A stretch of 64,000 nucleotides of DNA from Chloroflexota bacterium (GCA_022565155.1 JADFKB010000006.1:53-64052), one strand, 5' to 3'; positions 14,977 through 48,555 are shown, numbered from the stretch's first letter. Numbers and translations: made by a program. Notes: generated from the sequence alone by a model not told the origin.

Positions 14977-15322
14977 GAACTGCCATTGGGCGCACGGTTC
15001 GTATCTAGATCTGGCCGATTAGGCGATTCGAGCTTTGCCTCTTCCGAGGAAGAATAAGTCTGCCCTTGAGACTCGGTTTCCTCGTCTAAGGGGGTTAGGC
15101 GAAGAACTGGGCACTAGGCGCTCAGTGGCGGCACTCAAAAGACCACAAGCCCCCCGGGGTGCGTCGGCATTAAGAGAAGAAGTGTATGGCTAGGAGACTA
15201 GCCTTGATCCTTTCACTCCTGAGTATCTGGCATGCGCGCGTGCGCGACAGGTGCCATAGGGCCTAGGCAACCAGCCAATCGTCCTATCAATATCGCCGCC
15301 CCGCTATACTTGCTGCTGAACG

Positions 15323-16666
15323 ATGCAGCAGAGTACGCGACGCTGGCGTCAGGTGGGTGTGTGGCTGCCCGCCGCATTCATTGCGGCGACGGCAGCCGTG
15401 GCCGTGCTCGGCCTTGGCCGGGTCATCTCGGACGTCGCGGTGGTCGCCGTGATCGCCGGGCTTGGCGCAGTCGGTGCGGCGGTGTTCTCACGCTGGATCT
15501 TCCAGACGCTGGGCCATGCCCAACAGGAGACCGATGAGCGCGCTCGTGAACTGGCCGCGATCAACGAGGCCAGTCTCGCACTATCATCAGACCTGGACTT
15601 GCCATCGCTGCTTCAACGCGTAGTTGACCTGAGCCGGGACGTGACACATGCAAGGTATGGCGCGCTCGCGATGCTGGGAGAAGATGATGAGATCGCCCAG
15701 TTCATCACATCGGGCTTGGGTCAGGCTGAACGCGATCGAATCGGCCCGTTGCCGAAAGGACGAGGCCTGTTGGGAGCGGTGATTCAGTCGGGTGAGACCC
15801 TTCGCGTAGACGACATCGCCTCCCATCCGCAGGCGTTCGGTTTCCCGGAACACCATCCGCGCATGACGAGCTTCATCGGCCTACCGATCCGCTATGAGGG
15901 ACGCATCGTCGGCGATCTCTACCTCACGGACAAGGACGGCGGATCGCCGTTTTCGGAACGAGACGAGGAGATGCTTCGAGCCTTCGCGGCTCACGCCGCG
16001 GCCGCGATCGAGAATGCGCGACTCTACAGACAGGTACAGGACTTGGCCGTCGTGGAAGAGCGTGACCGGATCGGCATGGACATGCATGACGGCGTTATCC
16101 AGTCGCTGTACGCGACCGGCCTCAAGGTCGAGAACTGCCTGGAAGACCTTAAGGATGATCCGTCTCAAGTCGAACCGCAGCTCCACAACGTGCTCGATCA
16201 ACTCAACCAGAGTATCGCCGACCTGCGTGGGTACATCTTCAACCTTCGGCCGAACGAGCTTGCTGACAGCGATCTGGCGGGCGCCGTCGGCAGCCTGCTG
16301 CAGGAGTTGAAGGTGAACGCGCTGTTAGACGTGCAGCTCATCGAGGGGCCTCAGGCCTGCGAAGGCCTGTCGGCGGAACAGACGAAGGCTCTGTTCCATG
16401 TCGCGCGTGAGTCATTGGCAAACGTAAGGAAGCACGCGAAGGCGCACTCGGTTACCGCCAGTCTCGAGCATAGGGGCGGCAGCTTCCGCATGACGATCGT
16501 CGATGATGGCGGTGGGTTTGATCCCAACCAGCCCAGCAGTGGGCTAGGACTCCGGAACATCCGCGAGCGAGTCTCCGCCCTGGGCGGACAGATCGACATC
16601 AAGGCGGCTGTTGGCCAAGGCACCCAAGTCACGGTTGATATACTATTGGAGCGGAAGGGGTCTTAG
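15323..16666 (+). CDS. GAF-domain sensor histidine kinase, DosS/DosT-like, with two N-terminal hydrophobic helices
   Basis: PKGRGLLG, GFPEHHPRMTSFIGLP...LYLTDK (heme-binding GAF of the DosS type), ERDRIGMDMHDGVIQSL H-box, DDGGGF/GLGL ATPase motifs. Confidence 0.88.
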   Translation: MQQSTRRWRQVGVWLPAAFIAATAAVAVLGLGRVISDVAVVAVIAGLGAVGAAVFSRWIFQTLGHAQQETDERARELAAINEASLALSSDLDLPSLLQRVVDLSRDVTHARYGALAMLGEDDEIAQFITSGLGQAERDRIGPLPKGRGLLGAVIQSGETLRVDDIASHPQAFGFPEHHPRMTSFIGLPIRYEGRIVGDLYLTDKDGGSPFSERDEEMLRAFAAHAAAAIENARLYRQVQDLAVVEERDRIGMDMHDGVIQSLYATGLKVENCLEDLKDDPSQVEPQLHNVLDQLNQSIADLRGYIFNLRPNELADSDLAGAVGSLLQELKVNALLDVQLIEGPQACEGLSAEQTKALFHVARESLANVRKHAKAHSVTASLEHRGGSFRMTIVDDGGGFDPNQPSSGLGLRNIRERVSALGGQIDIKAAVGQGTQVTVDILLERKGS

Positions 16667-16668
16667 AC

Positions 16669-17331
16669 ATGGCCGGCAAGACACGCGTGATGATTGTGGA
16701 CGATCACGAGGTCGTCCGTGAAGGGCTGCGCTCACTGCTGCGCCGGCGCGAGGAGCTGGCCGTCGTTGGGGAGGCGGATTCGGTGGCATCCGCTATCGAA
16801 GAGGCGCGCAAGACCGAGCCGGACGTCGTGATCATGGATGTCCGCCTACCGGACGGCAGCGGCGTCGAGGCCTGTCGCGAGATCAGGTCTGAGCGTCCTG
16901 ACACTAAGGTGCTAATGCTTACGTCGTACGCCGACGAAGAGGCCGTGTTCGCCTCAATCATGGCGGGTGCGGTCGGCTACCTCCTGAAGCAGACGAGTAC
17001 GAGAACGCTGATCGAAGCGATCGAGCGGGCGATGAGGGGCGAATCACTTCTCGATCCCGCTGTTACGCAGCGCGTACTGGAGCGCGTGAGGAGTGGCAAG
17101 CAGGACGAGGACGAGGAGCTCGCGCTCCTTTCAGAACGGGAGCGCAAGATCCTCGACCTGATCGCGGAAGGCAAGACCAACAAGGAGATAGCGAAAGAGA
17201 TCTTTCTTAGCGACAAGACGGTGAAGAACTACGTCAGCAGCATCCTCAGCAAACTGAACATGCGCCGGCGCTCAGAGGCAGCCGCATTCATCGCCCGCCG
17301 GAGCCCGCGCACCGAGGAATCCCGAGACTAG
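16669..17331 (+). CDS. NarL-family response regulator, DosR/DevR-like
   Basis: VDDHEVVREG, MDVRLPDGSG, GKTNKEIAKEIFLSDKTVKNYVSSILSKL. Confidence 0.9.
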   Translation: MAGKTRVMIVDDHEVVREGLRSLLRRREELAVVGEADSVASAIEEARKTEPDVVIMDVRLPDGSGVEACREIRSERPDTKVLMLTSYADEEAVFASIMAGAVGYLLKQTSTRTLIEAIERAMRGESLLDPAVTQRVLERVRSGKQDEDEELALLSERERKILDLIAEGKTNKEIAKEIFLSDKTVKNYVSSILSKLNMRRRSEAAAFIARRSPRTEESRD

Positions 17332-17401
17332 CGCCAGCCTCTCGCCACGAGAGGTGTCTCTACTTTAGGCCCACGCGAAGTCTATCGAGCCTCGGGAACA
17401 T

Positions 17402-17437
17402 GGGCCGTTTGGCCAAGCCGAACGGGCGCTTTGGGCC
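17402..17437. promoter_or_regulatory. Tandem DosR-box-like palindromes upstream of the USP/mob operon
   Basis: GGGCCGTTTGGCCA (17402) and GGGCGCTTTGGGCC (17424), starts 22 bp apart. Confidence 0.6.
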
Positions 17438-17527
17438 TAGGAGTCCGCTCCCCTGACCATCTACGCTCATAGCAGGTCACGCTGCTTCGCCTTAACGAGT
17501 TGCGTGCGACGTGGAAAGGGGAACGCC

Positions 17528-18067
17528 ATGTTCAAGAAGATACTAGTTCCCGTGGATGGATCGAGCTTCTCCGAGCAAGCCATCCCTGCCGCGAGGGAGC
17601 TCCTGACGGGAGGTACTGAGGAAGTTACCCTCCTCACGATCAGTGAAGCGCCTAAGGCAACCCGGCGGCGGCGCAAGGGATTGCGGCGTCCCGTCCCATT
17701 GGCCGCAATGTCGGGATTCGCGCCCGCTGGCGTGCTTCCGGCTGAGCTTCCCGTGTACGTCGAGACGAAGGGCCAGGCCGTAGAACGCCGAGAACAAGAG
17801 CTGCTTGAGTACGTGAACCGGGCCGGGCGGCCGCTGGCAGAGACGGGCCGCAGCATCCATGCGGCGGTCCACTTTGGTAACCCCGCGATCGAGATCATCG
17901 ACTTCGCACAGAGGGGCCAGTTCGATCTGATCGTTATGGCCACGCACGGCCGCTCCGGCCTGTGCAAGACGATGCAAGGGAGCGTGACGGCGGAAGTGAT
18001 TCGCAGCGGGGTTACTCCGGTGCTCGTCGTGCGGCCGAAGAAGCGGCTGTCGAAGGCGCGCCGATGA
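17528..18067 (+). CDS. Universal stress protein
   Basis: MFKKILVPVDGS, DLIVMATHGRSG...GSVTAEVIR...PVLVV. Confidence 0.92.
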   Translation: MFKKILVPVDGSSFSEQAIPAARELLTGGTEEVTLLTISEAPKATRRRRKGLRRPVPLAAMSGFAPAGVLPAELPVYVETKGQAVERREQELLEYVNRAGRPLAETGRSIHAAVHFGNPAIEIIDFAQRGQFDLIVMATHGRSGLCKTMQGSVTAEVIRSGVTPVLVVRPKKRLSKARR

Positions 18068-18450
18068 TCGTACGCGTCCTTCTTGTGGATGCTCACGAAG
18101 AAGCCAGGCAATCGCTCGTCCGCAGGCTAGAGAGCGACGGCCGTGTGATGGTCGCTGCCCAGGCGCCAACGGTCGCGGAGGCTGGCGTCGTTGTTCGGGG
18201 CGCACAGTGTGACCTCGCGCTCATGAACGTCCAGAGCCACGACAACGAGTCGATTGCTCGGTGTCAGGAATTGCGCAGGCTGACCGAAATCCCGCTGGTC
18301 GTGCTCGCTTCCTTCATGACCATCGAGCAATGGCGGGCCCTGAGACAGGCCGGCGCCGCTGACTACCTGCTCAAACACGCGAACAGCCAGCGCCTCTGTA
18401 GCGCGATCGTGCGGTTGGCTGACCGGCATCGGTCGGATGAAGGGAGTTGA
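18064..18450 (+). CDS. Stand-alone receiver-like domain (atypical, Asp to Asn)
   Basis: VRVLLVDAHEE, DLALMNV, PLVVLASF, AGAADYLLK. Confidence 0.7.
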   Translation: MIVRVLLVDAHEEARQSLVRRLESDGRVMVAAQAPTVAEAGVVVRGAQCDLALMNVQSHDNESIARCQELRRLTEIPLVVLASFMTIEQWRALRQAGAADYLLKHANSQRLCSAIVRLADRHRSDEGS

Positions 18451-18453
18451 ACG

Positions 18454-18963
18454 ATGACGGTTGCTATCGGTATCATCGGCTGTAAGAATGCGGGCAAGAC
18501 GACTCTGATAGAGGGCCTGCTCAAGGAATTCGCATCCCGAGGACTGCGTGCGGCGACGATTAAGCACGATGCGCACGATTTCGAGATCGACATCCCTGGC
18601 AAGGACACCTGGCGACATCGCGCAGCCGGAAGCAAGCTGACGATCATCGCGTCGGCGTCGAAGATCGCGCTGGTGCGTGAGAACGAGCGCGAGGCTGAGC
18701 TGCACGAACTGCTTCAGTTCGTCGACGACTCGTTCGATCTGGTGCTCGTGGAGGGTATGCGGAACAGTCCGTTGCCGAAGATCCTGGTCCGGCGTTCCGG
18801 CGCGGGCGACGACCCTCCCGGTATTCAGGGAGAGATCCTCGCAGTCGTTTCAGGAGACGCCGAGGCTGCTTCGCGGACAGGCCTCTTCCGGCCAGACGAC
18901 GCGGCGGCGCTCGCGGACCTCATTCAGGAGCGGCTGCTCAACAAAGAGGCGATGACGGCTTGA
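18454..18963 (+). CDS. mobB: Molybdopterin-guanine dinucleotide biosynthesis protein B
   Basis: GCKNAGKTTL P-loop, TIKHDAHDFEIDIPGKDTWRH, DLVLVEG. Confidence 0.9.
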   Translation: MTVAIGIIGCKNAGKTTLIEGLLKEFASRGLRAATIKHDAHDFEIDIPGKDTWRHRAAGSKLTIIASASKIALVRENEREAELHELLQFVDDSFDLVLVEGMRNSPLPKILVRRSGAGDDPPGIQGEILAVVSGDAEAASRTGLFRPDDAAALADLIQERLLNKEAMTA

Positions 18964-19568
18964 CAAAGGACAACGTCATCGGAGCAGTTCTCGCCGGCGG
19001 TTACGGCCGTCGCATCGGCTGCGACAAGGCGACCGTCGAGCTCGACGGCAGACCGCTGATCAGCTACCCGGTTGGCGCACTGAGGTCGGCGGGCCTCGAC
19101 GTTGTTCTGGCACTGCGCAGTGGCCAGGAGATGCTAGCTGGCCTCGATGACGTGAGCTTCGTCCACGACGAATTCGAAGGCGCCGGGCCGCTGGGAGGCC
19201 TCCACGCACTACTCAAGTGGATGCCGGGCGAATGGGCGCTCGTGGTCTCCTGTGACCAGCCGTTCGTCCGAGTGAACCTGCTGCACGGCATCATGTCCCA
19301 CAGCGATTGTACGGCCGACGCCGTCGTCGCGCGGATGTCGGAGTGCCTGCAGCCAATGCCCGGCCTTTTTCGAAAGACGTGCCTGCCGTTCGTTGAAGAG
19401 GCCTTGGCCAAGGGCGAGATGGGCCTCCGGAACCTGCTGCACCACATCCGCCTCTACGAACTGGAGGGCGAAGAGATCGACCGCCTCGACTTTGAGCGCT
19501 CTTCCTTCATCAACATCAACACACCAGAGGATCTCGCCAACGCTCGTCGTCTCGCGGTCGCGCTCTAG
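18960..19568 (+). CDS. mobA: Molybdenum cofactor guanylyltransferase
   Basis: VLAGGYGRRIGCDKA, GPLGG, SCDQPF, FININTPEDL. Confidence 0.9.
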   Translation: MTKDNVIGAVLAGGYGRRIGCDKATVELDGRPLISYPVGALRSAGLDVVLALRSGQEMLAGLDDVSFVHDEFEGAGPLGGLHALLKWMPGEWALVVSCDQPFVRVNLLHGIMSHSDCTADAVVARMSECLQPMPGLFRKTCLPFVEEALAKGEMGLRNLLHHIRLYELEGEEIDRLDFERSSFININTPEDLANARRLAVAL

Positions 19569-19673
19569 TTGGACGGCTTCAGCACAGAAGGGGACGCACT
19601 GAGCACAGCCATTGCAGTGCTGGTGCCGGGCGGCGATCGTTTTGGCTCCCGAATCGCGCCGATTGGCCCCTTG

Positions 19674-21908: not shown

Positions 21909-22943
21909 TCAGTTTGGGGCGTGGACGGAGATTGGCGCGGGAGTCCGCTCCGAAGCTTCTTCGACGATGTTAAAGGTGCCTGCCAGGAACCCGACTCCGA
22001 GGATGATGAGCAAGTGATGGTAGGTTGCTTCCGGCATATAACCAGCTACCAATAGAAGAAGCAGGCCTGTCCCGAGCCAGAAAGCGTCCTTGTCACGAAA
22101 GCAGGCCACGACCGTCACGAGATAGAGAGCCAGTGACAGAAGATACACCGGGGACGGCAGGAAGAAGCTCATGCCTGTCGTCCAGAGGGCGAGGATCGAT
22201 GTGGTGGAGGACGGGGTCATGGTGCTAAGCCCTACGACGGCCACGAACCCAACCACTAGCGCAATTCCGACACGCCCGGCAAGCCGCCAGCGTGGTCTTC
22301 CCCACGCCCAGAAGACAGCCGCGCCCGCGAGCACGACCAGCACCTCTCCCCACCGAAGTACGTCGATGCCCAATGGCGGCAACGCGGCGTAGTCGAGCAG
22401 CCGATACGCAATGTGAGACAGGGAGTAGTACTGATAGCAGAGATATGCTCCAACAACGAGGGCGACAGCCACGCGCGGACTGGTTCTGACGTCCTTCCTG
22501 GCCATCAGCGTGACGCCGAGCATCAGGACTGCCAGCGTGGCGGCTAACCCAAACGCCCCGTCCCAGGCGGCCCCTCCTGTGACCAGGCTCATCGCGAGGC
22601 TGATCATCAGTGCTCCTGAGATCGCGGCGAGAACGAAGCGAGCGACACGGTCTCGTACCTGCGTCGTCATTACGAGGAGCAGCAGCACGGTCAGCACGAT
22701 CGCCAGGATCGATGCGGAGTTGAACGCGAACGAACCGACGAACGATGCAGCCTGTAGACCGTCGCCGGCTAGCTCGCTGCGAGGAACGTGCACGCCTATC
22801 CGTGTCGTCAGGCGAAGGAGAACGATCTCCAGCAGCGCAGCTACGACCAGACCGAGAACGACCTGTCGCAAGAGAGTCTCGCTGACCGACAGCCGAGGGA
22901 GCTGCCACTTGTAGGACATACGCGAGACCGTTGGGCTAAGCAT
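21909..22943 (-). CDS. Polytopic membrane protein, last gene of the nxr-like operon
   Basis: Roughly ten hydrophobic segments; co-oriented and tightly spaced after the gamma subunit. Confidence 0.75.
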   Translation of the reverse strand: MLSPTVSRMSYKWQLPRLSVSETLLRQVVLGLVVAALLEIVLLRLTTRIGVHVPRSELAGDGLQAASFVGSFAFNSASILAIVLTVLLLLVMTTQVRDRVARFVLAAISGALMISLAMSLVTGGAAWDGAFGLAATLAVLMLGVTLMARKDVRTSPRVAVALVVGAYLCYQYYSLSHIAYRLLDYAALPPLGIDVLRWGEVLVVLAGAAVFWAWGRPRWRLAGRVGIALVVGFVAVVGLSTMTPSSTTSILALWTTGMSFFLPSPVYLLSLALYLVTVVACFRDKDAFWLGTGLLLLLVAGYMPEATYHHLLIILGVGFLAGTFNIVEEASERTPAPISVHAPN

Positions 22944-22954
22944 CTTCCGCTGCC

Positions 22955-23950
22955 TCAGGCCGTCTGGCGCCGCGTGTATAGAAGGTAGCTTCCTGCGGCG
23001 GCCAGACCGACGATTACGACGAGACCTACGACTACGAAGAGCCCTACTGCCTCGCCTGACAGACCACCGCCGCCACCTGTTGCGATCTCCGGCGAGATCT
23101 CCAGAGTCATGAACTGGGACACGGATTTGATGCCGTCCCGTTCGGCCCTGGCTCCATCCCAAACGGCGAACGCTACGTTCGTGCTGTCTCCCTCGCTGAA
23201 CTGCGCGTACTCGCCGGCGACCTCTAAGTCGCGCGAGAAGACGACTCGCCACTTCCCGTCATCCCAACTCCCCATTCCATTCACCATCTGGTCTTCGGCC
23301 GCCCTAAGGGTGCCGAAGCTCCCGGCTAGCAGGTTGTCGGCCGCGCTCGTGCGGTCTGCCCGCGCGACAATATTGCCGGAAGCGCTTGCCGGATAGAACT
23401 CAGCTTCGTCTTCGAATGGGTACAGGTCCACGTCCACGTTCGGGTACACGTCCTGCACGTCGAGAACGGAGGCGCCCGTTCCGGTCTGCCAGGACGCTTT
23501 CCACTGCCAGATGTTGACCGGCGCCTCCGGGTTGCCCATGCAGAACGCCGGTACGCTCTCGCCATGTTCGACCGGGAACTGAACGGCGGCCGCATCGGTG
23601 AAGTCATTCTGACGGCCGGTTGATGCGTCCTCCGACTCATCGTTCCACTCCAAGCGGATGTAGAGTTTCCCGTCATGGTGTAGCGCGCGTGCGGTGACGG
23701 TCCCCTGGTCCCCGCCTTTGGGCGCCACGACATTCTGCCCACTCAGAGGCACCTGTATTGGCGCGCCTTTGTCCCAGACGTCGGCTGACGGGTCATCGAG
23801 CGGTATTGCGTTTTCGCTGCGCTTGGCGACGAGCGTGATCGTCTGCGAGGATGCCAGCCGCAGGTCGAGCAGGGTCAGTACCGCGGCACCGACGAGCACG
23901 AGCGCGAGAATGCCGGTCGAGAGTCTCCTAGAGCTGGATAAGGTTCCCAT
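22955..23950 (-). CDS. Heme b-binding gamma subunit (EbdC/NxrC-like) with signal segment and C-terminal membrane anchor
   Basis: LYIRLEWND, FTDAAAVQFP, FCMGNPEAPVNIWQWKA, WRVVFSRDL, VAFAVWDGARAERDGIK (Met/Lys heme ligands as in EbdC). Confidence 0.85.
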   Translation of the reverse strand: MGTLSSSRRLSTGILALVLVGAAVLTLLDLRLASSQTITLVAKRSENAIPLDDPSADVWDKGAPIQVPLSGQNVVAPKGGDQGTVTARALHHDGKLYIRLEWNDESEDASTGRQNDFTDAAAVQFPVEHGESVPAFCMGNPEAPVNIWQWKASWQTGTGASVLDVQDVYPNVDVDLYPFEDEAEFYPASASGNIVARADRTSAADNLLAGSFGTLRAAEDQMVNGMGSWDDGKWRVVFSRDLEVAGEYAQFSEGDSTNVAFAVWDGARAERDGIKSVSQFMTLEISPEIATGGGGGLSGEAVGLFVVVGLVVIVGLAAAGSYLLYTRRQTA

Positions 23951-24707
23951 TGCCGTCTCCTGACTGCACGAGCGGACACTCAGCCGTCGAACAACCCTCT
24001 TCGCTGACGTTCGTTCGCCAATCCGTATTGACCTCGAGGACTTCTGGCTGCGCACGAAGATAGGCGATCTCATCAGCGAGGAAGGCATCGAGCAGCGCGG
24101 CAGTAGCCGCGAACAATCCTTCCGGGGCTCTACCGGCCAGTTGCTGGGCGAACTGGCGACCCCAACGTCCAAGATGGTCTTGGACAAACTTCCGTTGCAC
24201 CACGCGGCACAATCGGGCCTTCGCGGAGCCGTGATGGAGCTGGGCGACCGCCTCTTTAGACGTGAGCAGGTGCATGAACTCCAACTCGACGGTGATGTGA
24301 TCCGGGCGCTCACGCTCGGCGAGCTCCATGCCGAAGGCGCGGAAGAACCCGGCGATGTCACTCAACTGGGCCGTCTCTTCGAAAATCTCCCGAGCCGTGT
24401 AGACTGTCTCGCACGGCGGGCAGTCCAGCGACAGCAGGTGGCTGAAGATGCGCCCATGTTCGCTCTGCAGTGCGTCAGGGGAGGAGTTTTGCAGCTCCTT
24501 GGCGAAGGCGGCGAGTGGTTCCGAGAACGTCTCGTCCAGAATCTCGGCGGCGGCCTGGGCCTGGGGCAGGTCTTCCTCGCGTAACGCCGCAATGACGTTC
24601 GCGCTGGGGTACATGGTGGCCTGGCAGAGCAGCCGGTAGGCGGCGCTGCGCGCGAAATGACGCGCCGCCGCTTGCTCCTTTCTGGTTTCGATCATCTGTA
24701 CTGTCAT
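23928..24707 (-). CDS. TorD/DmsD-family maturation chaperone
   Basis: CPPCETVY, DIAGFFRAFG, ERPDHITVELEFM, HLGRW. Confidence 0.88.
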   Translation of the reverse strand: MTVQMIETRKEQAAARHFARSAAYRLLCQATMYPSANVIAALREEDLPQAQAAAEILDETFSEPLAAFAKELQNSSPDALQSEHGRIFSHLLSLDCPPCETVYTAREIFEETAQLSDIAGFFRAFGMELAERERPDHITVELEFMHLLTSKEAVAQLHHGSAKARLCRVVQRKFVQDHLGRWGRQFAQQLAGRAPEGLFAATAALLDAFLADEIAYLRAQPEVLEVNTDWRTNVSEEGCSTAECPLVQSGDGNGNLIQL

Positions 24708-24722
24708 GTGTCGTCCTCCGAC

Positions 24723-25988
24723 CTAAATGGAGTTCTGGAACTGACCAGCGAAGTCTCCATTTCGAATGTGGAACGGCTCTTCGACGGAGATGCGCGCCGC
24801 TTCGTTGCCAGATCCATCGAATCCGATGATCGTGTCGTTGAAGAGCTGCACTCTGCGGCCGTTGATCTCCGTATCGAGGATCTCCTCGCCTTCCTCGATC
24901 TCGTATCGGAAGATGATCTTCTGCGTCGCGCGGAAGAGTTGAAGCACTGCCTGCAGCTCTCGTGATGGGTTGGTGTAACGCTCGATCGCGGCGTCGACGC
25001 CCGGGCCGAAGAGCTGACGCAGGTACTGACGCGGCACCCATCGCGGCGGGATGTAGTACACGTTCGGCTCGGTACCAAACTGCGGATAGAGCGGAAGCGC
25101 CACCTGCTCCTTCCGCACCAGGAAGTACAGCGGGTTGGTCGGCGCCTCGGCCCAATGGCCGTCCTCGATGTCCACCAGCCCTTGGAGCCGGATCTTGCCG
25201 ACGCACGTCGCGACGCAGCGCGGCTCCATCGGGATGCCGTTCGTTAGTGGGTCCGTCCCCTCGACTCGCGGGTAGCAGCCAATGCACTTCTCGCTGACCT
25301 GCTGGTTCGGCCTGTACATCGACTTCTTGTAGGGGCACTGTTCAACGCACTTCCGATACCCACGACAGCGTTCCTGGTCGATGAGGACGATGCCGTCTTC
25401 CGGCCGCTTGTAGATCGCGCTCCTCGGGCAAGCCGACACACAGCCCGGATAGGTGCAGTGATTGCAGATGCGCTGCAGGTAGAAGAACCACGTGTTGTGC
25501 TCCGGAAGCTGTGCGCCCTCCGGATGGTACTCGCCTGGCACCCCCGGCTTGCCCTTCGCGGTGTCTTCGTAAAGGTTCGGAGATGTCCATTCCTCATCGG
25601 TCGGGATATAGCCGATAGCGTTGTCTTTGCCCTCCTTCTTGGCGGCCTCGAAGATCGTCATCCCCTTGAACTCGCCGTACGGCGCATCATCGCTCTGCGA
25701 CGATGTGTCCCACGTCTGGCCGCCGGGGTTGGCGTCGTTCAGCATCTGGAGGAGCTTGATATCCCAATGGTGCGGGTAGCCGCCGTACGGCTTGGTCTCC
25801 ACGTTGTTCCACCACATGTACTCCTGTCCGCGGCTGAACGTCCAGGTGGACTTGCAGGCGAAGGTGCAGGTCTGGCAGGCGATGCAGCGGTTAGTGTTGA
25901 AGACAGCGACGAACTGCCGGTTCGGATGGACCTCCGGGAAGCGGTACTCCATCTCCCGCCCTAGCTGCCAGTTGTGAACCTTAGCCAT
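24723..25988 (-). CDS. nxrB: Nitrite oxidoreductase/nitrate reductase beta subunit, Nitrospira/anammox type
   Basis: [79 protein letters not shown]; co-linear with Nitrospira and Kuenenia NxrB as recalled. Confidence 0.88.
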
Positions 25989-26014
25989 CGTTACGACCTC
26001 CAGCCTTCCGGGAG

Positions 26015-29000
26015 CTAGCTTCCACGCGTCTGAATGAAGCCACCGGCCAAGTACTTGTTCATGTCATCGTCCTCTGCCGCCGGGGTCTTGCCGCTCAGAG
26101 CCGGCTTCCAGATGCCTTTCCCACCGAGCCCGCCCGCCTCAGCCTTCGTTACACGCACCAACGTCTCCTTCGGAACGGTGTTGATCGCGTGGTTGTCCGC
26201 CTCGCCGCCGAAGATGAAGGCAGTGGCCACCTTGGCCTTGTGGAACAGGGTGTCCGTCTGGTGCATCGGCATCGCCCAGTCACGTGTGAGGCTCTGCTGG
26301 GAACCGTAGCGCAGGTTGGACTGGTAACCTGTGCCCTCGGATAACGCTCGACCATCAGGACGCGTCTCATGCGCCAGTACGGATCTCTCGGTGGCCATCA
26401 TCGGAGAGTGCTTCATCATGATGATGTTGTACGGGTAAGAAGGGTTGTATCTGGCGCGCAGCATAAGCCGCGCGACCTTGTAGAAAGGATCGTCCGGTGT
26501 CCAGTTCAAATAGGGTCGGTCAGCGGGGTTGGCGTCGATGTAGACGTAGTCACCGTCCTCGATGCCAAGGTCCTTCGCGGCCTGGGGATTGATGTGGACC
26601 TGGTGCTCGCCCACCCCCGGCATCCGCGTGTCCCGCCGATACGGGTCCGCGAAGTTGGAGTCCCAGATCTGGTGCCAGTCGACCATGCCCCACTGAGAGT
26701 GCACGCGGTGTCGGGTTTTGGGTGTCAGGCAGTAGAAGCTGAAGCCGTTTTCCCAGAGCGGGTTCGTCGTCTTCTTGACCTCCGCCCAGGACATCTTGTT
26801 GTTCGCGATCGTTCGCAGGTCCGCATCGAGCACTTCGCTCTGGAGCATCTCAGGCGTAATCCCGTAGTTTTCCGGGCGGATGTACGGGTTGGTGCTGACG
26901 ATGACGTTCGGAAGATAAGGCGTGGCTTCTGGCCCTTCACGATGGACGATCAAGTTCTCTCCATACTCGATGGCCTCCGGGATGTCGCAGTATGAGTTGA
27001 GTCTGCCAGTGTCCGTGAAGAAGGGAACGTTGTCCTCCATCTGCTCGTAAAACGGGACGCGCGGGTACGTGCGGAACATCATCAAGGCGGCACCCGGCTC
27101 TCCGTACTTGCCAGCCATGATGTCATCGACCTTGTAGCCGGTGGTGGTCGTTGACGCGTCCAACAGCCGCTGCAGGTAGACCTCCGGCCGTCCCTCCAGG
27201 GCGAACTTCCAGTAGTCCCTGATGCGCTGGTCGTCCAGCAACTCTGCGAGCTTGGCCGCCATGTTGGCGATGATCGTGATGTCATCTTCCGTGTCGTAGA
27301 GCGGCTTGATCCCTTCCTTGCCCCAGATCTGGAGGAAGGGATTCGAGCAGGAGGCCGTCACCTCGAGCTGTTGGAACTCCATCCAGGAGTTTGCCGGGAG
27401 GATGAGGTCGGAGTACTCGCCAGTGGCCGTCATCTCGATGTCCTGATTGATGATCAGGTCGACCTTGGGATTGACGTTCTTGATGATGCCATAGGCCCAC
27501 TTTGCGTTGTTGATGATGTTCACGTTGTTGAACCACATCACCTTGGTGGGCGTCGGCATGTGGGTCTGGCCGGTGAAGTTCTTGCGACCATGGGTGGGTG
27601 TCTCCACGATCAGCGCCTGGTCGCCGTGGTCCCAGTAGGCCGGCTCCTCATCCTTGGCGTGGCCCTTCACCACGATGTCCGAACCCGACGCGTTCGGGTC
27701 CAGGTTCGGCCGGAGCGGGTCTTCAGCGACCCAGCCCTTGAAGCCCGGCCCCGTCCACGGAGAAGCCTGGAAGAGCGCGGCCTTGTAGTTCCCTGCCCAC
27801 TGGTGGCAGCCGGCCCCCTTTTGGCCGATGTTGCCTGTCAGGATCAACGGCAGGTAGGTCGCGCGGTTGTGCAGTGTGGCGTGGAACCAGTGTTGAATTC
27901 CCTCGCCGACGTGAATCGCGACAGGCTTGATCGTGGCGATGTCCTTAGCGAGCCGCTCGATGAGGTCTTTGGGGGCGCCGCAGATCTCATGCACCGTATC
28001 AAGGTCGTAGTCCTGCAGGTTGATCTTGTACATCTCCCAGACGGTCATCACCGCGACCTCGCTGCCGTCCGCGAGCGTGATCGTGTCCTTGTACTCCAAC
28101 GTCGGGTCGATGCCCTTCTGCACCATGCGATCGCCCAGGTCGTCGCGCGTTATCGCCTTGAGGCTGTTGCTGTTCTGGTCGAACACCACGAAGTCGCCGA
28201 GCTGCTCGTGCTGCTCCTGCGTCAGGCCCTGGAGCGCGAAGCTGGGACCGTCCTGAGATAGGCTCGACCGATAGTTCGGGAAGACTTCGCCGGCCCGCAG
28301 GCGCTTCAGGTTGTCCGTCCGCACGAGGAGCGGGAAGTCGGAGAACTTCTTGACATAATCCTCATCGTGCCAGCCGTTGTCCATGATGATCTTGGAAACG
28401 CCCAGGAAAATGGCGGTGTCGGAGATGCCCGGCCGGACGGAGAGCCAGTAGTCGGCCTTTGTCGCCTGGGGGCTGTACTCCGGCGAGATGATCACGATCT
28501 TCCCGCCGCGCTCCATGGTGTTGTAGAAGAAGTGCGTGTCGGGCATCTTGTTCTCGATCATGTTGACGCCGGCATGGATGTGGAGCTTGGTGTAGATCAT
28601 GTCGTTGAAGTCGCAGTCGGACGTCTGCAGCCCGTGCACAAACGGCTGGCCGGGCGCCTGGTCGCCGTGCCAGGTGTAGTTCGACCAGTTGCGACCGCCC
28701 AGCGCGTCGTCGACATCGATGCCGCGGATGTGGCTGTCGAGGAAAGCCAGCGTATTGGAAAATCGGTACATGCCGTACTTGCCGATTACGCCTAGCAGGC
28801 CCATGCCGCCACGCAGCTTGATCGTGCGTGTGCCGGCGCCATGCATCTCCTCGATCATTTCCGGCTGGTAGCCTTCGGCCGCTAGCCGGCGCGCGCCCTC
28901 TTCGCCACTGTAGGCCCTGGCGATGGCGATCATGCCTCGGGCGGCGTAGTCATGCGCATCGTCCCAAGAGAGTCGTACGAAGATGTCGTGACCCCGGTCG

Positions 29001-29814: not shown

Positions 29815-29858
29815 CTGTGCGTCATTTCACTATCCCAGAGGTGTGCGCAGGATGGGGA

Positions 29859-29872
29859 GAGCCATGTGGCCC
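29859..29872. promoter_or_regulatory. DosR-box-like palindrome upstream of the nxr-like operon
   Basis: GAGCCATGTGGCCC (1 mismatch to GGGNCNNNNGNCCC). Confidence 0.55.
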
Positions 29873-31436: not shown

Positions 31437-31439
31437 GAA

Positions 31440-37298: not shown

Positions 37299-37327
37299 GA
37301 GGAGCCTCCTCTCGCTGATGTCTGCCG

Positions 37328-38548
37328 TTACCTGGCGAGGATGTGCACTGTCGTCGCGGCGGCCTCGCCGCGCACCATGCCGCCGCCGTTCTCGGTCAGG
37401 CCTACCTTCGCGCCGTCCACCTGGCGATCGCCGGCTTCGCCACGGAGCTGCAGCCAGATCTCGTAGATCTGCGCGATGCCCGTCGCGCCCACGGGGTGGC
37501 CCTTTGCCAGCAGCCCGCCGCTGGTGTTGACGGGCAGGCGCCCGCCGATCTCGGTGACGCCTTCGTCGATCAGCTTGCCGCCCTCCCCTTCCTCACAGAG
37601 GCCCAACTCTTCGTAGATGAAGAGCTCCGCGGGCGCGGTGGCGTCATGGACCTCTATCACGTCGACGTCCTTTGGTGTCATCCCGGCCATCTCGAACGCC
37701 CGCTGCGCCGCGCGCGCCGTTGCGCCGCCGACCTTCCCGCGGTCGTCGGCGCCGGAAACGATCGCCGAGCCCCGCACCCACACGGGATCGGTCGTCATCT
37801 GTCTGGCCTTCTCCTCGCTCACCAGGATCGCGGCGGCCGCTCCATCGCCGATGGGCGAGCACATGAGGCGCGTCAGCGGCTCGGACACCATCGGCGAGGC
37901 GAGGATCTCTTCAAGGGTGTAGCGCTCCCGATACTGGGCGAGCGGGTTGAGGCTGCCGTTGTTGTGGTTCTTCACGGCGATGCGGGCATACTGCTCCTTT
38001 GTCGTCCCGTAGCGCTCCATGTGCGCCCGCGCGGCAGCTCCGTAGATGTCCATGAAGAGGCTGCGCTTGGTGCCGGCGCCGCTCTCCTCGCCAGACTTCT
38101 TCTCGGAAGGCGGCTTCAGATTGCTCATGATCTCACGAAGCTGCTCGACATCGACGGCCCCGCTGAACGCCGCCATCGACTTCGCCTTGTCCGCGACGAA
38201 CATCTTCTCCACGCCGACGGCCAGCGCAACATCGTAGAGGCCGGACGCGACGTAGAGCCACGCGACCTGGAACGCAGTCGACGAGCTGGCACACGCGTTC
38301 TCGGTGTTGACCATCGGGATCTTGTCGATCCCCATCTCGCGCAGAACCACCTGGGCGCGGACACACTCCTGTCCTGTGATCAACCCGGCCGCGGCGTTAC
38401 CCACGACCGCGACCTGCAATCCTGACTTGTCGATTCCGGAGGACTCCAGAGCTGCGCTAACGGCTTCGTCCGTCAACTGCTTGAGCCCGCGATCCTGATA
38501 CTTGGCGAAACGTGTCATACCAGCGCCGGCTATCGCGACGTTTCTCAT
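37328..38548 (-). CDS. SCP2-type thiolase family protein
   Basis: [47 protein letters not shown]. Confidence 0.88.
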   Translation of the reverse strand: MRNVAIAGAGMTRFAKYQDRGLKQLTDEAVSAALESSGIDKSGLQVAVVGNAAAGLITGQECVRAQVVLREMGIDKIPMVNTENACASSSTAFQVAWLYVASGLYDVALAVGVEKMFVADKAKSMAAFSGAVDVEQLREIMSNLKPPSEKKSGEESGAGTKRSLFMDIYGAAARAHMERYGTTKEQYARIAVKNHNNGSLNPLAQYRERYTLEEILASPMVSEPLTRLMCSPIGDGAAAAILVSEEKARQMTTDPVWVRGSAIVSGADDRGKVGGATARAAQRAFEMAGMTPKDVDVIEVHDATAPAELFIYEELGLCEEGEGGKLIDEGVTEIGGRLPVNTSGGLLAKGHPVGATGIAQIYEIWLQLRGEAGDRQVDGAKVGLTENGGGMVRGEAAATTVHILAR

Positions 38549-38627
38549 AGCAGCCTCCTCATGCACTCAAGAGCGACACTACGTGTTGGGCTTCAGGCTA
38601 CCCAGTGCCACTCTGCTCGTTTCACCT

Positions 38628-38641
38628 GGGCCGTTCGGCAC
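38628..38641. promoter_or_regulatory. DosR-box-like palindrome upstream of ahbC
   Basis: GGGCCGTTCGGCAC, 1 mismatch to consensus, intergenic. Confidence 0.55.
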
Positions 38642-38795
38642 TTACCTGAGACTGAGGCGAGGTCTACATTGAACTGACAGACGATGCTTAGGATCTTGCA
38701 CTTCGCCGATCTGCACCTTGACGGTTCGGTTCCCGCGAGCGTCAAGCCTCTGGCACGTATGCTCCCGGTGAGGACGCGACACATGTGGAAGCGGC

Positions 38796-41527: not shown

Positions 41528-41564
41528 AGGCCATCTGGCCCCCGTCTTTCAGTAGCAATGTCCC
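41528..41564. promoter_or_regulatory. Tandem DosR-box-like sites upstream of the cupredoxin lipoprotein
   Basis: AGGCCATCTGGCCC (41528) and AGTAGCAATGTCCC (41551; GGGAC half-site on the reverse strand), 23 bp apart. Confidence 0.55.
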
Positions 41565-41634
41565 TACAGTACCCTTCAAGAACAGCCTACGCTGCAGAGA
41601 GAACGATCGAATCTACAAAGGAGGCCTCTGGGAA

Positions 41635-44220: not shown

Positions 44221-44244
44221 TGGCAACGCTAAAGGAGGTTCGAT

Positions 44245-45498: not shown

Positions 45499-45513
45499 AA
45501 GGGAGCATCCGCT

Positions 45514-46311
45514 GTGGCAGTTCTTGAGATCACCAACAGCGGCCACGTCCGCAAGCTGCGGCTGAACAGGCCGGAGAAGAAGAATGCGCTCTCCGACGAA
45601 CTCGCCTGGGGCATTATTAGCGCGGTCGAAGAAGCCGCCAAGGACGATACCGTCTGGATCATCGCGATCACGGGCACGGACGACGCGTTCTGCTCGGGCC
45701 TCGACCTGACGCCATCGGCGAACGGCACGCACCCCTACCTATCAACGCAGGATGCGCTGCTCGACGACCTCGGCTGGGTGAGCCGCTTCCCCCTTGTGCT
45801 GCGTGAGCAGTGCGACAAGCCAATCGTCGCGGGCATTAACGGTGTGGACGTGGGCGCCGGCTTTTCGCTCGCCATGGCGTCCGACATTCGTCTCGCCGCC
45901 GAAAGTGTCCGCCTGATCGCAGGCTATCCTCGCATCGGCGGTTCGCCGGACGGTGGCCTCTCATGGACACTCTCGCAGGCCATCGGCTACGAACAGGCGA
46001 TGCGATTCCTGCTGGAGAACCGTACCGTCGGCGCGGAAGAAGCGCTGACGCTTGGCCTTGTGGGCGAGGTAGTGCCCAACGATACGTTCTTCGAGCGCTT
46101 CGACGAGTACTGCCAATCGCTCACGAATCTCTCGCCGATCACCGCGCGCCTGACGAAGCGCGTTGTGCGTCGCGCGACGGCCCTGGTCGATCCCGAAGGT
46201 CACTTCCGCTACGAGTTGCAGAACATCCGCCGCGCCTTCACTAGCCAGGACGGCCAGGAGGCGCAGAAGGCGTTCCGGGAGAAGCGCGCACCGGAGTTCA
46301 AGGGCCGCTAG
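45514..46311 (+). CDS. Enoyl-CoA hydratase/isomerase family
   Basis: LNRPEKKNAL, FCSGLDL, KPIVAGING, PDGG, FREKRAPEFKGR. Confidence 0.9.
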   Translation: MAVLEITNSGHVRKLRLNRPEKKNALSDELAWGIISAVEEAAKDDTVWIIAITGTDDAFCSGLDLTPSANGTHPYLSTQDALLDDLGWVSRFPLVLREQCDKPIVAGINGVDVGAGFSLAMASDIRLAAESVRLIAGYPRIGGSPDGGLSWTLSQAIGYEQAMRFLLENRTVGAEEALTLGLVGEVVPNDTFFERFDEYCQSLTNLSPITARLTKRVVRRATALVDPEGHFRYELQNIRRAFTSQDGQEAQKAFREKRAPEFKGR

Positions 46312-48158
46312 CGCACGACAAGCGTTCCCTTCATCTGCGCCGGGTGGACATCGCAAACAAACGGGTACGTTCCTGGCGTATTGATGGTTAGGACTAGCGT
46401 CTGAGTAACCGGTCCGGGCGTAATCTCTGTTCGAAAGTCGCCCTCTGGGCCAGCCTGCACATGCAGGTTGTGTGGGATGTCTGCATCTCTGTTATCAAAG
46501 GTCAGCGTGATCTCCTCGCCGACGGAGGCGGTCACTAGCTCGTGGTCGAAAGAGATGTTCTCGCCGGTGATCGTAGTCGCAGTTGATGCCGAAGGATCAT
46601 CCTGAGTAAGGTCATCGGACGTGGATAGCGGGAAGGGAACCGATCCTAGGTGTGGTCCCAGCCAGTTCAGTTCGTTCGCCAGGTGCATCGCACCAGCAGG
46701 TACGAATCGGTCATCTGTCACCTGCCACTGTGCTCCGTCCCACGTGATCTCCTGGGCGGGGATTGTTAGCTTGCCGACTAAAGGCGGAGGCGGCGTGTCC
46801 GCCGGGTGGTAGTAGACAACGCTCGGTAAGTCCATCTCGAACGCACTGGCCATCGCTCCGCTCTTTCCGGGAGGTGCAGAGAGCTGCATACCGCCGAGGC
46901 TGATCGTGCTTTCATAGAACCCGAGCAGCATTCGAGCAGCTTCTGGCTTTGAGGTATCGTTCCCTTCCTGGACCAAGAAGTTCAATGCCCCGATGATCCA
47001 GCCGACGTCGTCACTCGTGTATGTGTCCTTTGTCTTGAAGATGCCGCGGGTCTCGTCATAGTCTTCTGTGAGTCGACCGAAGAGCGCGTCCGCTTCGTCG
47101 AGGAAGTCGCCATCGAGGCCGGCGGCGCCTGCCGAGATCGCGCCTGTAATGGCTGCGGCGACCTCGACCACGCCGGCGGAGGTATTGCCACCAAGCAGCC
47201 TGTTCCCGATCGAACCTGCGGTAGCCAGGGCGTCGTCGCGAACCCCGGCATCGACCGTCGTGGATGCGAGGTAGACGAGAGCGCGGATGGCGGCAGCTGC
47301 CTCCGTAGCTAACGAAGGTTCGCGAGCCTCAAGCGCCCGGAAGAGCTGGGTCGCTGCACCTTCGAACAGGGGATGTGCGTCTGGATTGGCGTAGCGGCCG
47401 CCGTCCTCGCCCGTAAGGCCGGCGATGTCCGCCAACGTATGGAGCATGACCCAGTTGCCCACGTAGTCGATCTCGCCGTCCGAATCGTAATAGAGGCCGT
47501 CCTCGCCCAGCAGGTTCTGCATGGCATACATGCCCTGCATCTGGGCGAGGAGCGACACCATGACACCGATAAAGCGCTGTTGCGCCCCGAACTCACTCAG
47601 TGGGTCGCCGAAGTGGGCGTCGGCGAAGTTGTGGGCCCACTGGCTCTCTTTGAGCATCGTCTCCGCCTGCCCACGCACGGTCACCCGCTCGTCGAAGGTG
47701 CTCGGGTCCAAGCGAAACGCCTCGAAGTCCGGAGGCTCGAAGTCGCGCGGATCATTCACGAGGTCTGAGCTTGCTGATGCAAAGACCGCCTGTAGCGGTA
47801 GCATATTCTGAGGGATGACTACCGGGTCGTCAGGGTTCTGTGCGATCATGCCTATCGCCGCCATCAGCATGTCCATCGGCGGCTCAAAAGGGATGCCCAT
47901 CCCTGACCCCATTACGAAGGGGCCGAAGTGATCGCGGGATAGCCAGTAGCCTTGCCAGACCAAGGCCGAGAGATTGAATTCAGGGTCTCCGCCAATGATC
48001 CCGCTTGACGATACGAAGTCGATGCCATCTGCATCGACTTGAATTGAAACGGTCGGACTAGGCTTCGGGATTTCATCCTCGCCGCCATTGTCGCTACAGG
48101 CTGCGGCGAGAGCGAGCGCAGGCACAACTACTAGCGCGATCAACCAACGTCTGTCCAT
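46308..48158 (-). CDS. Large lipoprotein: uncharacterised N-terminal domain + C-terminal cupredoxin
   Basis: Lipobox-like AAAC; C-terminal IPHNLH...YPFVCDVHPAQMKG type-1 Cu motif; start trimmed to MDRRW after GGAGG. Confidence 0.8.
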   Translation of the reverse strand: MDRRWLIALVVVPALALAAACSDNGGEDEIPKPSPTVSIQVDADGIDFVSSSGIIGGDPEFNLSALVWQGYWLSRDHFGPFVMGSGMGIPFEPPMDMLMAAIGMIAQNPDDPVVIPQNMLPLQAVFASASSDLVNDPRDFEPPDFEAFRLDPSTFDERVTVRGQAETMLKESQWAHNFADAHFGDPLSEFGAQQRFIGVMVSLLAQMQGMYAMQNLLGEDGLYYDSDGEIDYVGNWVMLHTLADIAGLTGEDGGRYANPDAHPLFEGAATQLFRALEAREPSLATEAAAAIRALVYLASTTVDAGVRDDALATAGSIGNRLLGGNTSAGVVEVAAAITGAISAGAAGLDGDFLDEADALFGRLTEDYDETRGIFKTKDTYTSDDVGWIIGALNFLVQEGNDTSKPEAARMLLGFYESTISLGGMQLSAPPGKSGAMASAFEMDLPSVVYYHPADTPPPPLVGKLTIPAQEITWDGAQWQVTDDRFVPAGAMHLANELNWLGPHLGSVPFPLSTSDDLTQDDPSASTATTITGENISFDHELVTASVGEEITLTFDNRDADIPHNLHVQAGPEGDFRTEITPGPVTQTLVLTINTPGTYPFVCDVHPAQMKGTLVVR

Positions 48159-48276
48159 GGTAAACCTCCCCTTGTCGTCACGTAGTATACCCTCATGCAT
48201 TCGCCGACAGCATCCTATGGGGACTGCAAGCGTTGCGTGATCCGCGTCACGCGAACACCGGCCGGTGCCGGACATC

Positions 48277-48313
48277 AGGACTTGTGGCCTGAGATCAGCG
48301 GGCCGTTCGGCCC
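48277..48313. promoter_or_regulatory. Tandem DosR-box-like sites upstream of the large cupredoxin lipoprotein
   Basis: AGGACTTGTGGCCT (48277) and perfect GGGCCGTTCGGCCC (48300), 23 bp apart. Confidence 0.65.
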
Positions 48314-48388
48314 CCGTACGCCTGGTTCACCGGTGGACAACGCATGGAGGCAAGTTAGAGGCAGGACGCCATCATGTCGTGACGCCTT

Positions 48389-48457
48389 GCCAATCCCTTC
48401 ACGTTCTTGATGATCGGTGAGCGCGCCGATGAGTGGCTGCGCGAGGGCGCCCTCTAG
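48389..48457 (+). repeat. Degenerate copy of the GMC oxidoreductase 3' end
   Basis: ATGATCGGTGAGCGCGCCGATGAGTGGCTGCGCGAGGGC versus ATGATCGGCGAGCGCGCCGGGGAGTGGCTGCGCGAGGGC at about 43906-43944. Confidence 0.75.
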
Positions 48458-48518
48458 AGCAGGCTGCGAGGCCTTTCCCCATGCGACCCCGGAAGCCTGT
48501 TTCCTGTATCCGTTGTCA

Positions 48519-48555
48519 GGGCCACTTGGCCCCATGAGCCAAGACCGAACGGCAG
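48519..48555. promoter_or_regulatory. Tandem DosR-box-like sites upstream of the LLM/diiron operon
   Basis: Perfect GGGCCACTTGGCCC (48519) and weaker AGACCGAACGGCAG (48542), 23 bp apart. Confidence 0.6.

Follow-up and report, generated by a model that had tools for sequence, protein, structure and literature searches.

A 64,000-nt stretch from a Chloroflexota bacterium (GCA_022565155.1, JADFKB010000006.1:53-64052; in the following called the window) carries an operon for a nitrite oxidoreductase (NXR) and a recurring palindromic box, GGGCC-N4-GGCCC, upstream of this operon and of several others. Judged from its distribution and its conservation among relatives, this box is a real, conserved regulatory motif. 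We consider it likely, from sequence comparison, that the box is the operator of the adjacent DosR-type response regulator (16669-17331), partnered by a DosS/DosT-type sensor kinase (15323-16666). From the mycobacterial counterpart we infer that the regulator binds there, which signals are sensed and in which direction transcription is regulated. The window corresponds to G000:C94:53-64052, where G000 is a 2.80-Mb assembly of 185 contigs with 64.5% GC and a completeness of 92.8%.

All 15 palindromic sites listed in the original prediction, which had been made from the window sequence, were found at their coordinates with zero to four mismatches to GGGNCNNNNGNCCC. As it had claimed, two sites are perfect (48300 and 48519). 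Five others have one mismatch (17402, 19656, 29859, 38628, 41528), four have two (15251, 17424, 34575, 48277), two have three (15272, 41551) and two have four (34598, 48542); the partner sites it had called weak carry 2-4 mismatches. The loose pattern in which it had written the motif did not hold up as an enriched element of the window: it has 4 exact matches against 2.55 expected, 26 of 100 shuffled sequences reach the same number, and two of the four matches lie in coding DNA. Genome-wide, 29 of its 66 matches are intergenic, and they belong mostly to an unrelated hairpin of the form GTAGG..GGGTCTNNAGACCC..CCTAC. Because it stands at chance level in the window and genome-wide reports mostly this REP-like hairpin, we dropped the loose pattern as evidence. 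The hairpin is an element in its own right: the repeat GTAGG(Y)(S)GGGGTCTNNAGACCCC..CCTAC occurs on many G000 contigs, frequently as pairs with a distance of about 30 bp and in many cases between convergent genes (for example C29:17674, C43:29510, C133:16247 and C167:2738).

The actual core of the strong sites is GGGCC-N4-GGCCC, with a centre that is often A/T-rich. Patterns written around it are enriched in the window: GGCCNNNNGGCC (core GGCC-N4-GGCC) has 14 matches against 3.59 expected, a number reached by none of 100 shuffles, and the 14-mer GGGCCNNNNGGCCC, allowing at most one mismatch, has 13 against 7.03 expected (2 of 100 shuffles). By our gene calls, 9.3% of the window and 12.6% of the genome are intergenic; these calls, made with a GC3-based and a codon-usage caller, are crude, as the doubtful open reading frame (ORF) 29866-30174 illustrates. 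Greedy longest-ORF calls were discarded, as several lay on the wrong strand. Against the 9.3%, six of the 13 GGGCCNNNNGGCCC matches (p=6e-4) and six of the 14 GGCCNNNNGGCC matches (p=1e-3) are intergenic, the nxr site being scored as coding solely through that doubtful call.

For genome-wide and cross-genome scans we trained a position weight matrix (PWM) on eight window sites. The comparison of intergenic with coding DNA that the original prediction had proposed came out in its favour outside the window's own contig, where 5 of 8 matches scoring at least 14 and all three scoring at least 16 are intergenic, against a background of 12.6%. In the whole 2.8-Mb genome, just seven boxes reach a score of 16. 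Nine of the 21 intergenic matches scoring at least 11.5 fall inside the window, which is therefore a hot spot of the box. We also enumerated all 5-mer palindromes with gaps of 0-8 (2,183 patterns) in the genome; GGGCC-N4-GGCCC lies outside the top 25, which other elements dominate. The most intergenic-enriched of these patterns in G000 are CTGCC-N4-GGCAG (43 matches, 37 intergenic) and CCTGC-N6-GCAGG (38 matches, 33 intergenic). As the exact core is too rare for such a test, the case for the box rests on PWM matches, position and conservation.

Domains and families were assigned with Pfam and NCBIfam, and structural relatives by matches in the PDB. The original prediction had named a DosS/DosR-like pair at 15323-17331, and both members were recovered as such. 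The regulator combines a receiver domain (Response_reg, E 1.3e-30) with a GerE helix-turn-helix (E 7.6e-20), and its top PDB match is DevR of Mycobacterium tuberculosis (3c3w, E 2.6e-54, residues 6-210); E. coli NarL follows in fifth place (E 8.9e-34). In the alignment with DevR, an aspartate stands in the D54 column and KTVKNY is identical at 179-184. K179, K182 and N183 are given as the base contacts of DevR in the sections of PMC4082495 that we drew on, and the roles of these residues and of D54 are also taken from PMC3029386. A tblastn search with the regulator found no other protein with a KTVKNY helix in the 92.8%-complete genome and one other full-length NarL-type regulator, on contig C164, with 39% identity.

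The kinase, 447 amino acids long, has one GAF domain (residues 91-230), HisKA_3 from residue 246 (E 2.3e-14) and HATPase_c (E 1.1e-11); a second GAF domain (GAF-B) was not found in it with Pfam. In the PDB its GAF domain matches DosT (2vzw, E 8.8e-39) and GAF-A of DevS (2y79 and 2w3d, about 1e-36), and by sequence it resembles the heme-binding GAF-A of these proteins. DosS and DosT have two GAF domains, with roles described for heme His149 and Tyr171 in the sections of PMC4082495 used here. In the kinase both are conserved, the His of HHP aligning with the proximal His149 and the Tyr of LYLTDK with the distal Tyr171, and Ala occupies the position of DosS Glu87. NarQ and NarX models match the kinase core only (residues ~211-443), far under their cut-offs.

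The box itself resembles the DevR operator. In the portion of a study of DevR promoters on which we draw (PMC3177182), G3, G4, G5 and C7 are the critical bases of each half-site; the window box retains all four, and position 6 is C here and A in M. tuberculosis. Regulator and box also occur together elsewhere. Orthologs of the regulator (E at most 1e-45) are present in 52 of 61 related genomes, many with 63-94% identity, while NxrA was detected in just 10 of the 61. In 24 relatives whose 3.6-kb regulator loci were scanned, boxes scoring at least 16 occur in nine and boxes scoring at least 13 in twelve, most of them between the regulator gene and the next gene for a universal stress protein (USP) or a receiver (REC) protein, or upstream of the kinase gene. 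The box accompanies the DosR-like pair also in genomes where NxrA was not found.

The arrangement of the sites points in the same direction. At a distance of 20-24 bp on either side, the best partners of the strong boxes have a mean 14-position PWM score of 0.56, compared with -8.39 (sd 4.93) at 20,000 intergenic background positions; the mean of nine resampled positions stayed below the observed value in all of 20,000 draws. The weak partner sites are thus unconvincing singly and above chance as a set. Strong boxes are further related to -10-like elements: TANNNT lies 52-54 bp from the centre of the strong box in 14 of 41 site-orientations (background probability 0.025), and within the home genome in 5 of 18, namely at the USP, thiolase, radical-SAM, 166-aa cupredoxin and LLM promoters. 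A smaller cluster at 30-31 bp includes the nxr GATAGT at 31 bp. These distances place the boxes near -64 and -43, and the transcription starts predicted on this basis lie near 29822 on the - strand and near 17474, 41600 and 48591 on the + strand. The idea that the weak partners are mere -10 regions was dropped, as the -10-like elements sit beyond the partners. The strong box comes before the weak one at the USP, 166-aa cupredoxin, LLM and thiolase promoters, and the weak before the strong at nxr and the radical-SAM pair.

The tandem strong/weak layout with 21-23 bp spacing, as originally predicted, therefore stands: the partners score above background and the layout matches the DevR architecture as far as the cited portion of PMC3177182 describes it. 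There, DevR promoters have at least two tandem boxes, a conserved primary (P) and a degenerate secondary (S) one, in both P-S and S-P classes; at tgs1-Rv3131 the box centres lie at -42.5 and -63.5, and one pair drives divergent genes. According to that portion, none of the DevR promoters of M. tuberculosis was found to have a single box. The 38605/38628 pair seems to be a counterpart of tgs1-Rv3131, serving the thiolase and radical-SAM genes divergently; the -10-like TAGTGT on the thiolase side is 53 bp from the strong box centre.

Boxes are kept at orthologous promoters in related genomes. The nxr box is present in G001, G013, G004 (two copies), G010 and G015, ~60-80 nt before a small ORF that opens the operon, and an invariant TGnGATAGTG follows 24 nt downstream of it while the flanks have diverged. 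In G010 and G015 a better second box, GGGACGAATAGCCC, lies 22 bp further upstream. The LLM box is kept in G013 (score 18.3) and the whole LLM promoter in G011 (L073, score 19.8). The G010 ortholog of the first radical-SAM gene has a box of score 17.8 ~38 nt upstream. The tandem pair before the cupredoxin-NHL gene is kept in G013 (scores 16.5 and 12.4, 22 bp apart), where the large-cupredoxin ortholog also has two boxes, 24 bp apart (18.0 and 14.7). In G011 and G013 the 166-aa cupredoxin gene points away from the kinase-regulator pair, and the region between it and the kinase gene has two strong boxes (20.6/16.0 and 19.3/14.7); no box was found before its ortholog in G001. The strong/weak/TAC..T layout seen here after the regulator gene recurs in L075, L077, L078, L079, L080, L081 and L083. 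In the home genome outside the window, intergenic boxes lie near genes for an NHL/TSP3 protein (C6), a GDT1 transporter (C65), an SBP-dockerin protein and TrpRS (C48), an FG-GAP protein (C106), a cupredoxin (C89) and an HlyD-like protein (C61). At the last of these, C61 ~22440-22545 (L005 ~4440-4545) is a ~105-bp near-copy of window positions 29796-29900, comprising the nxr promoter, leader and start codon; it precedes an 841-aa HlyD-like gene, and the similarity ends just after the ATG.

Several observations weigh against the box being the operator of the DosR-like pair at all these promoters. PWM scores inside the window are circular, so that only matches outside it and in other genomes are independent, and the exact GGGCC-N4-GGCCC, with 12 matches genome-wide of which four are intergenic (p=0.055), is too rare for a test of its own. 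The 52-54 bp range was picked after inspection of the histogram, orthologous, non-independent promoters are counted among the 41 cases, and the -10 elements are predicted as TANNNT matches only. At individual sites, the pair at 15251/15272 upstream of the kinase, where autoregulation of the kinase is possible, has no PWM match of at least 11 (L072); on neither side of 19656 does a TANNNT stand at a usual distance; the TAGAGT of the cupredoxin-NHL gene is 42 bp from the centre of the proximal box, about one helical turn farther than elsewhere; and the 48300 box has no -10 at the usual distance, the start codon of its gene being uncertain (48275 or near 48200). We regard 15251/15272, 19656 and 48300 as less certain; in G013 (L074), no box of at least 11 lies in the ~400 nt after mobA. 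One of the high-scoring matches in the genome, GGCGGGCCATATGGCCCGCC at C155:7822-7841, is embedded in a longer GC-rich hairpin that separates convergent genes, and is probably a terminator, not an operator. At nxr, the X17 contig record 24 (29049-29906, 12 differing letters) extends ~84 nt beyond the predicted transcription start, and such contigs cannot show RNA ends. This record is one of the RNA-library contigs from two studies (X16 and X19; X17) that extend over the small ORF and into the 5' part of nxrA with high identity; all four sequencing runs examined are contigs, which neither prove transcription nor give the ends, strand or level of an RNA. Finally, relatives with an NxrA of 80-84% identity (L031, L032, L033, L047, L062) have no such box at nxr.

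These sister lineages have other elements before nxr. In L031 (~5520-5560) and L062 (~2830-2870), a CRP/FNR-like TGTGC-N6-TCAC(A/G) occupies the place of the box before a -10-like element; in L047, an Rrf2-family regulator gene (5111-5719) abuts the small ORF; and in L032 and L033 the upstream sequence looks similar. From these sequences, the nxr promoter seems to be wired to different redox or NO regulators across lineages, with turnover of the regulator.

If the pair works as its mycobacterial relatives do, the heme of the kinase would sense O2, NO or CO, and a change of this signal would lead the kinase to phosphorylate the regulator. A regulator dimer on the strong box would help a second dimer onto the weak box 21-23 bp away, and the box near -43 would contact RNA polymerase and turn the promoter on. 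Predicted targets are the USP-REC-mobB-mobA operon (finishing of the molybdenum cofactor), the operon for the Tat-exported NXR, three cupredoxin-domain proteins, the LLM operon, and the AhbC/AhbD-like radical-SAM pair (heme) with the divergent thiolase/nitroreductase/CoA-transferase operon; a few more would lie elsewhere in the genome. With a kinase acting like DosT/DosS, the module would be induced on falling oxygen or by NO or CO, and such induction would fit an NXR that serves as a periplasmic nitrate reductase or acts at micro-oxic interfaces, with the cupredoxins carrying electrons.

Could the box be a real operator that another factor binds, the DosR-like pair being adjacent by coincidence? 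The genome does hold a second full-length NarL-type regulator, that of C164 with its 39% identity, and an unrelated palindrome-binder would also be conceivable; the CRP/FNR-like sites (L031, L062) and the Rrf2 gene (L047) of sister lineages show that regulators at nxr change over time. However, the recognition helix of the C164 protein differs (VKTVEAHKAH), the DevR-critical bases, as given in the portion of PMC3177182 used here, are kept in the box, the tandem layout of 21-23 bp is a hallmark of DevR, and the box travels with the DosR-like pair in 9-12 of 24 relatives, including genomes without a detected NxrA, so that we judge this explanation unlikely. It could also be supposed that the palindromes are chance GC-rich matches, RNA hairpins or terminators: folding of a GC stem of 5 bp around a 4-nt loop is conceivable, the C155 match is terminator-like and the loose pattern occurs at chance level in the window. 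Such an origin is highly improbable, since the core motif is enriched, the sites lie upstream of genes or between divergent genes, no T run follows the box in the printed site flanks, the spacing to -10-like elements is fixed, and the position of the box is kept while the flanks diverge.

A different doubt concerns not the binding but its outcome: the DosR-like regulator might bind and yet repress some or all of the promoters, or be triggered by something other than hypoxia, NO or CO. In the kinase a second GAF domain is missing and Ala replaces DosS Glu87, the boxes at 48300 and before the cupredoxin-NHL gene lie at unusual -10 distances, and the presence of a heme-copper oxidase means that NXR could carry out aerobic nitrite oxidation, for which induction at low oxygen is not obviously useful. 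On the other hand, most boxes lie near -43 and -64 and not over the -10 or the start, which is the activator layout of DevR, and the heme His and the distal Tyr are kept. We give this possibility little weight, and we retain as the preferred explanation the box as operator of the adjacent DosR-type regulator with its heme-GAF kinase.

Table 1 Boxes, promoters and genes of the predicted regulon. Positions are those of the window.
Feature	Position	Strand	Basis or remark
Weak box pair upstream of kinase	15251-15264 and 15272-15285	+	2 and 3 mismatches
Sensor histidine kinase (one GAF, HisKA_3, HATPase_c)	15323..16666	+	Pfam, PDB
DosR/DevR-like response regulator (REC, GerE/LuxR helix-turn-helix)	16669..17331	+	Pfam, PDB
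USP-operon promoter	17402..17467	+	strong box 17402-17415; weak box 17424-17437; -10-like TACGCT 17462-17467
USP	17504-18067	+	Pfam
Stand-alone receiver domain	18064-18450	+	Pfam
MobB	18454-18963	+	Pfam
MobA	18960-19568	+	Pfam
Isolated palindrome GCGCCGATTGGCCC after mobA	19656..19669	.	1 mismatch, PWM 16.4
nxr operon	21909..29799	-	Pfam, NCBIfam, PDB
Unassigned 344-aa gene	22943-21909	-	operon position
Heme-b gamma subunit (EB_dh)	~23899-22955	-	Pfam; longest ORF starts at 24361
NarJ-like chaperone (Nitrate_red_del)	24707-23928	-	Pfam
nxrB, Fe-S (Fer4_11)	25988-24723	-	Pfam
nxrA, Tat signal	29491-26015	-	PDB 7b04_B
Small conserved ORF, 103 aa	29799-29488	-	conservation, coding-like pattern
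nxr promoter	29829..29894	-	proximal strong box 29859-29872; weak conserved element upstream, ~29881-29894; GATAGT 29834-29829
Cupredoxin and NHL-repeat protein, 986 aa	31440..34400	-	Pfam
Tandem boxes before cupredoxin-NHL gene	34575-34588 and 34597-34610	-	PWM 13.6
Thiolase, nitroreductase-family protein, two CoA-transferase subunits (one operon)	34637..38566	-	Pfam
Shared divergent control region	38576..38670	.	strong box 38628-38641; weak box 38605-38618; TACATT 38665-38670 toward radical-SAM genes; TAGTGT 38581-38576 toward thiolase operon
Radical-SAM/SPASM protein, AhbC/NirJ1-like	38796-40052	+	Pfam, NCBIfam
Radical-SAM/SPASM protein, TIGR04053, AhbD-related	40049-41227	+	Pfam, NCBIfam
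Promoter of 166-aa cupredoxin	41528..41593	+	strong box 41528-41541; weak box 41551-41564; TACGCT 41588-41593
Cupredoxin, 166 aa	41635-42135	+	Pfam
Protein of 630-655 aa, C-terminal cupredoxin domain	46308..48275 or near 48200 (start uncertain)	-	Pfam
Large cupredoxin boxes	48277..48313	-	perfect box 48300-48313; weak box 48277-48290
LLM promoter	48519..48584	+	perfect box 48519-48532; weak box 48542-48555; TAGTAT 48579-48584
LLM gene	48651-49736	+	Pfam
Two genes downstream of LLM	49789-50865 and 50912-52150	+	faint R2-like oxidase matches

The nxr operon begins with a small ORF of 103 amino acids without a Pfam or NCBIfam family match; nxr operons of many phyla are accompanied by a homolog of it (32-83% identity), in most cases placed between nxrA and nxrB. 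With this ORF, the start of nxrA moves to 29491, which leaves an overlap of 4 bases (29488-29491) and gives an N-terminus of MRPVSRRAFLK with the Tat motif SRRAFLK. The NXR-clade label of the original prediction proved well founded: the 1210-aa ORF matches Kuenenia NxrA (7b04_B) with 1783.7 bits over residues 56-1206, the second-best PDB match of the alpha subunit reaching 190.5 bits. The gamma subunit scores 164.7 bits with TIGR03477, just under the cut-off of 169.85. The same gene order is found in G001 and G013. The public records with the closest NxrA are metagenome-assembled genomes (MAGs) assigned to Chloroflexota, Dehalococcoidia or SAR202. DNA near-identical to window positions 22000-31999 is present in 16 runs with the label marine sediment or marine metagenome (at least half of the sampled words in each), and 20 rows with such DNA are spread over 9 studies. 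The genome encodes one heme-copper oxidase; cytochrome bd was not found in it at 92.8% completeness.

Most other gene labels of the original prediction were likewise confirmed with Pfam and NCBIfam, namely the kinase, USP, mobBA, NXR, cupredoxins and LLM, whereas its ahbC label holds approximately: AhbC is the top model of the gene at 38796 with 569.8 bits, under the cut-off of 650, and NirJ1 reaches 531.1. The second radical-SAM gene exceeds the cut-off of TIGR04053 (483.9 bits; cut-off 395) and stays below that of AhbD (361; cut-off 500). In L035, L038, L040, L042, L046, L051, L052, L057 and L062, which come from Hyphomicrobiales, Gammaproteobacteria, SAR202 and other MAGs, homologs of the two genes (28-61% identity) are found downstream of nxrC, a few kb beyond the nxr operon. 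The sequence context hints that the pair may be a maturation factor of NXR and not part of general heme synthesis.

The USP, REC, mobB and mobA genes form a tight operon (17504..19568), neighbours overlapping by 4 bases or lying 3 bases apart. The stand-alone REC protein could serve as a phosphate sink or form a branch of the pathway; REC genes like this one follow the regulator gene in many relatives. Between mobA and the nxr operon, an alpha/beta hydrolase gene (20114-21028, +), covered by RNA-library contigs, is followed with a 4-base overlap by an Oxidored_molyb gene of the sulfite-oxidase fold (21025-21750, +), a second molybdenum enzyme beside mobBA. Downstream of LLM, the two genes match R2-like oxidase models of NCBIfam with E 2e-6 and 3e-7, far under the cut-off.

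The closest known system is DosS/DosT-DosR of M. tuberculosis. Shared with it are the heme GAF-A with the same His and Tyr, the HisKA_3 core, and a NarL-family regulator with equivalents of D54, K179, K182 and N183. As far as the mycobacterial operators are described in the portion of the literature considered here, they also share the palindrome with GGG.C half-sites and the pairing of a strong with a weak box (spacing 21-23 bp, positions near -64 and -43), in P-S and S-P order and with divergent sharing. USP and nitroreductase-family targets and a nitrate-linked function, there narK2, recur as well (PMC3177182, in the portion cited). In contrast, the system described here belongs to a member of Chloroflexota and not Actinomycetota, its 447-aa kinase has a single GAF domain and no GAF-B, its half-site is GGGCC instead of GGGAC, and its predicted targets are a Tat-exported NXR, mobBA, AhbC/AhbD-like radical-SAM proteins, cupredoxins and LLM. 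At some of the promoters described here, one clear box may be all there is, a type that, according to PMC3177182, was not found in M. tuberculosis.

Other comparisons are more distant. NarX/NarL and NarQ/NarP control the nitrate reductase operons of enterobacteria, and NarL binds heptamers. As there, a NarL/LuxR-family regulator would control a nitrogen-oxide enzyme of the type II DMSO-reductase family; in contrast to NarX, the sensor is a cytoplasmic heme-GAF kinase and not a periplasmic nitrate/nitrite sensor, and the box and its tandem layout are DevR-like. The nxr operons of sister Chloroflexota are laid out alike, opening with the small ORF and directly preceded by a regulator site or gene, but have the CRP/FNR-like box (L031, L062) or the Rrf2 gene (L047) instead of a DosR-type box; in our search we came across no published account of these arrangements. 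The original prediction knew of no NXR-clade enzyme under DosR control, and in agreement with this our search of a literature library found no work joining DosR and nitrite oxidoreductase. Judged by titles and abstracts, it also turned up nothing on a DosR regulon in Chloroflexota, and the work on nxrA promoters or regulators that it did find deals neither with Chloroflexota nor with a regulator of the DosR type. The mechanism itself, the DosRST design, is known; its occurrence in this phylum, the kinase with one GAF domain, the GGGCC half-sites and the range of targets are new.

The NXR genes of non-canonical phyla are usually scored as "nitrite oxidation" in metagenomes, with no indication of the conditions under which they are used. 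A set of sensor, regulator and operator that can be read from the sequence turns this into a testable prediction of when abundant sediment Chloroflexota make NXR, and it suggests partners of the enzyme: three cupredoxins, the conserved 103-aa protein, MobAB and the radical-SAM pair. Tentatively, we further propose that the single-GAF heme kinase and its DosR partner form an oxygen/NO switch in marine-sediment Chloroflexota for a complete, self-sufficient periplasmic NXR module, which would comprise the enzyme, genes that finish its Mo-bisMGD cofactor, genes of heme maturation, and cupredoxins that replace cytochromes c as electron wires, and in which NXR is a low-oxygen enzyme, with lineages using DosR, CRP/FNR or Rrf2 for its control. 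If this is true, the NXR would most likely be a periplasmic nitrate reductase or a micro-oxic nitrite oxidase. With its box chemistry, its tandem strong and weak boxes and its shared divergent promoter, the DosRST design, known almost exclusively from work on mycobacteria, appears to have been kept in detail by a distant phylum.

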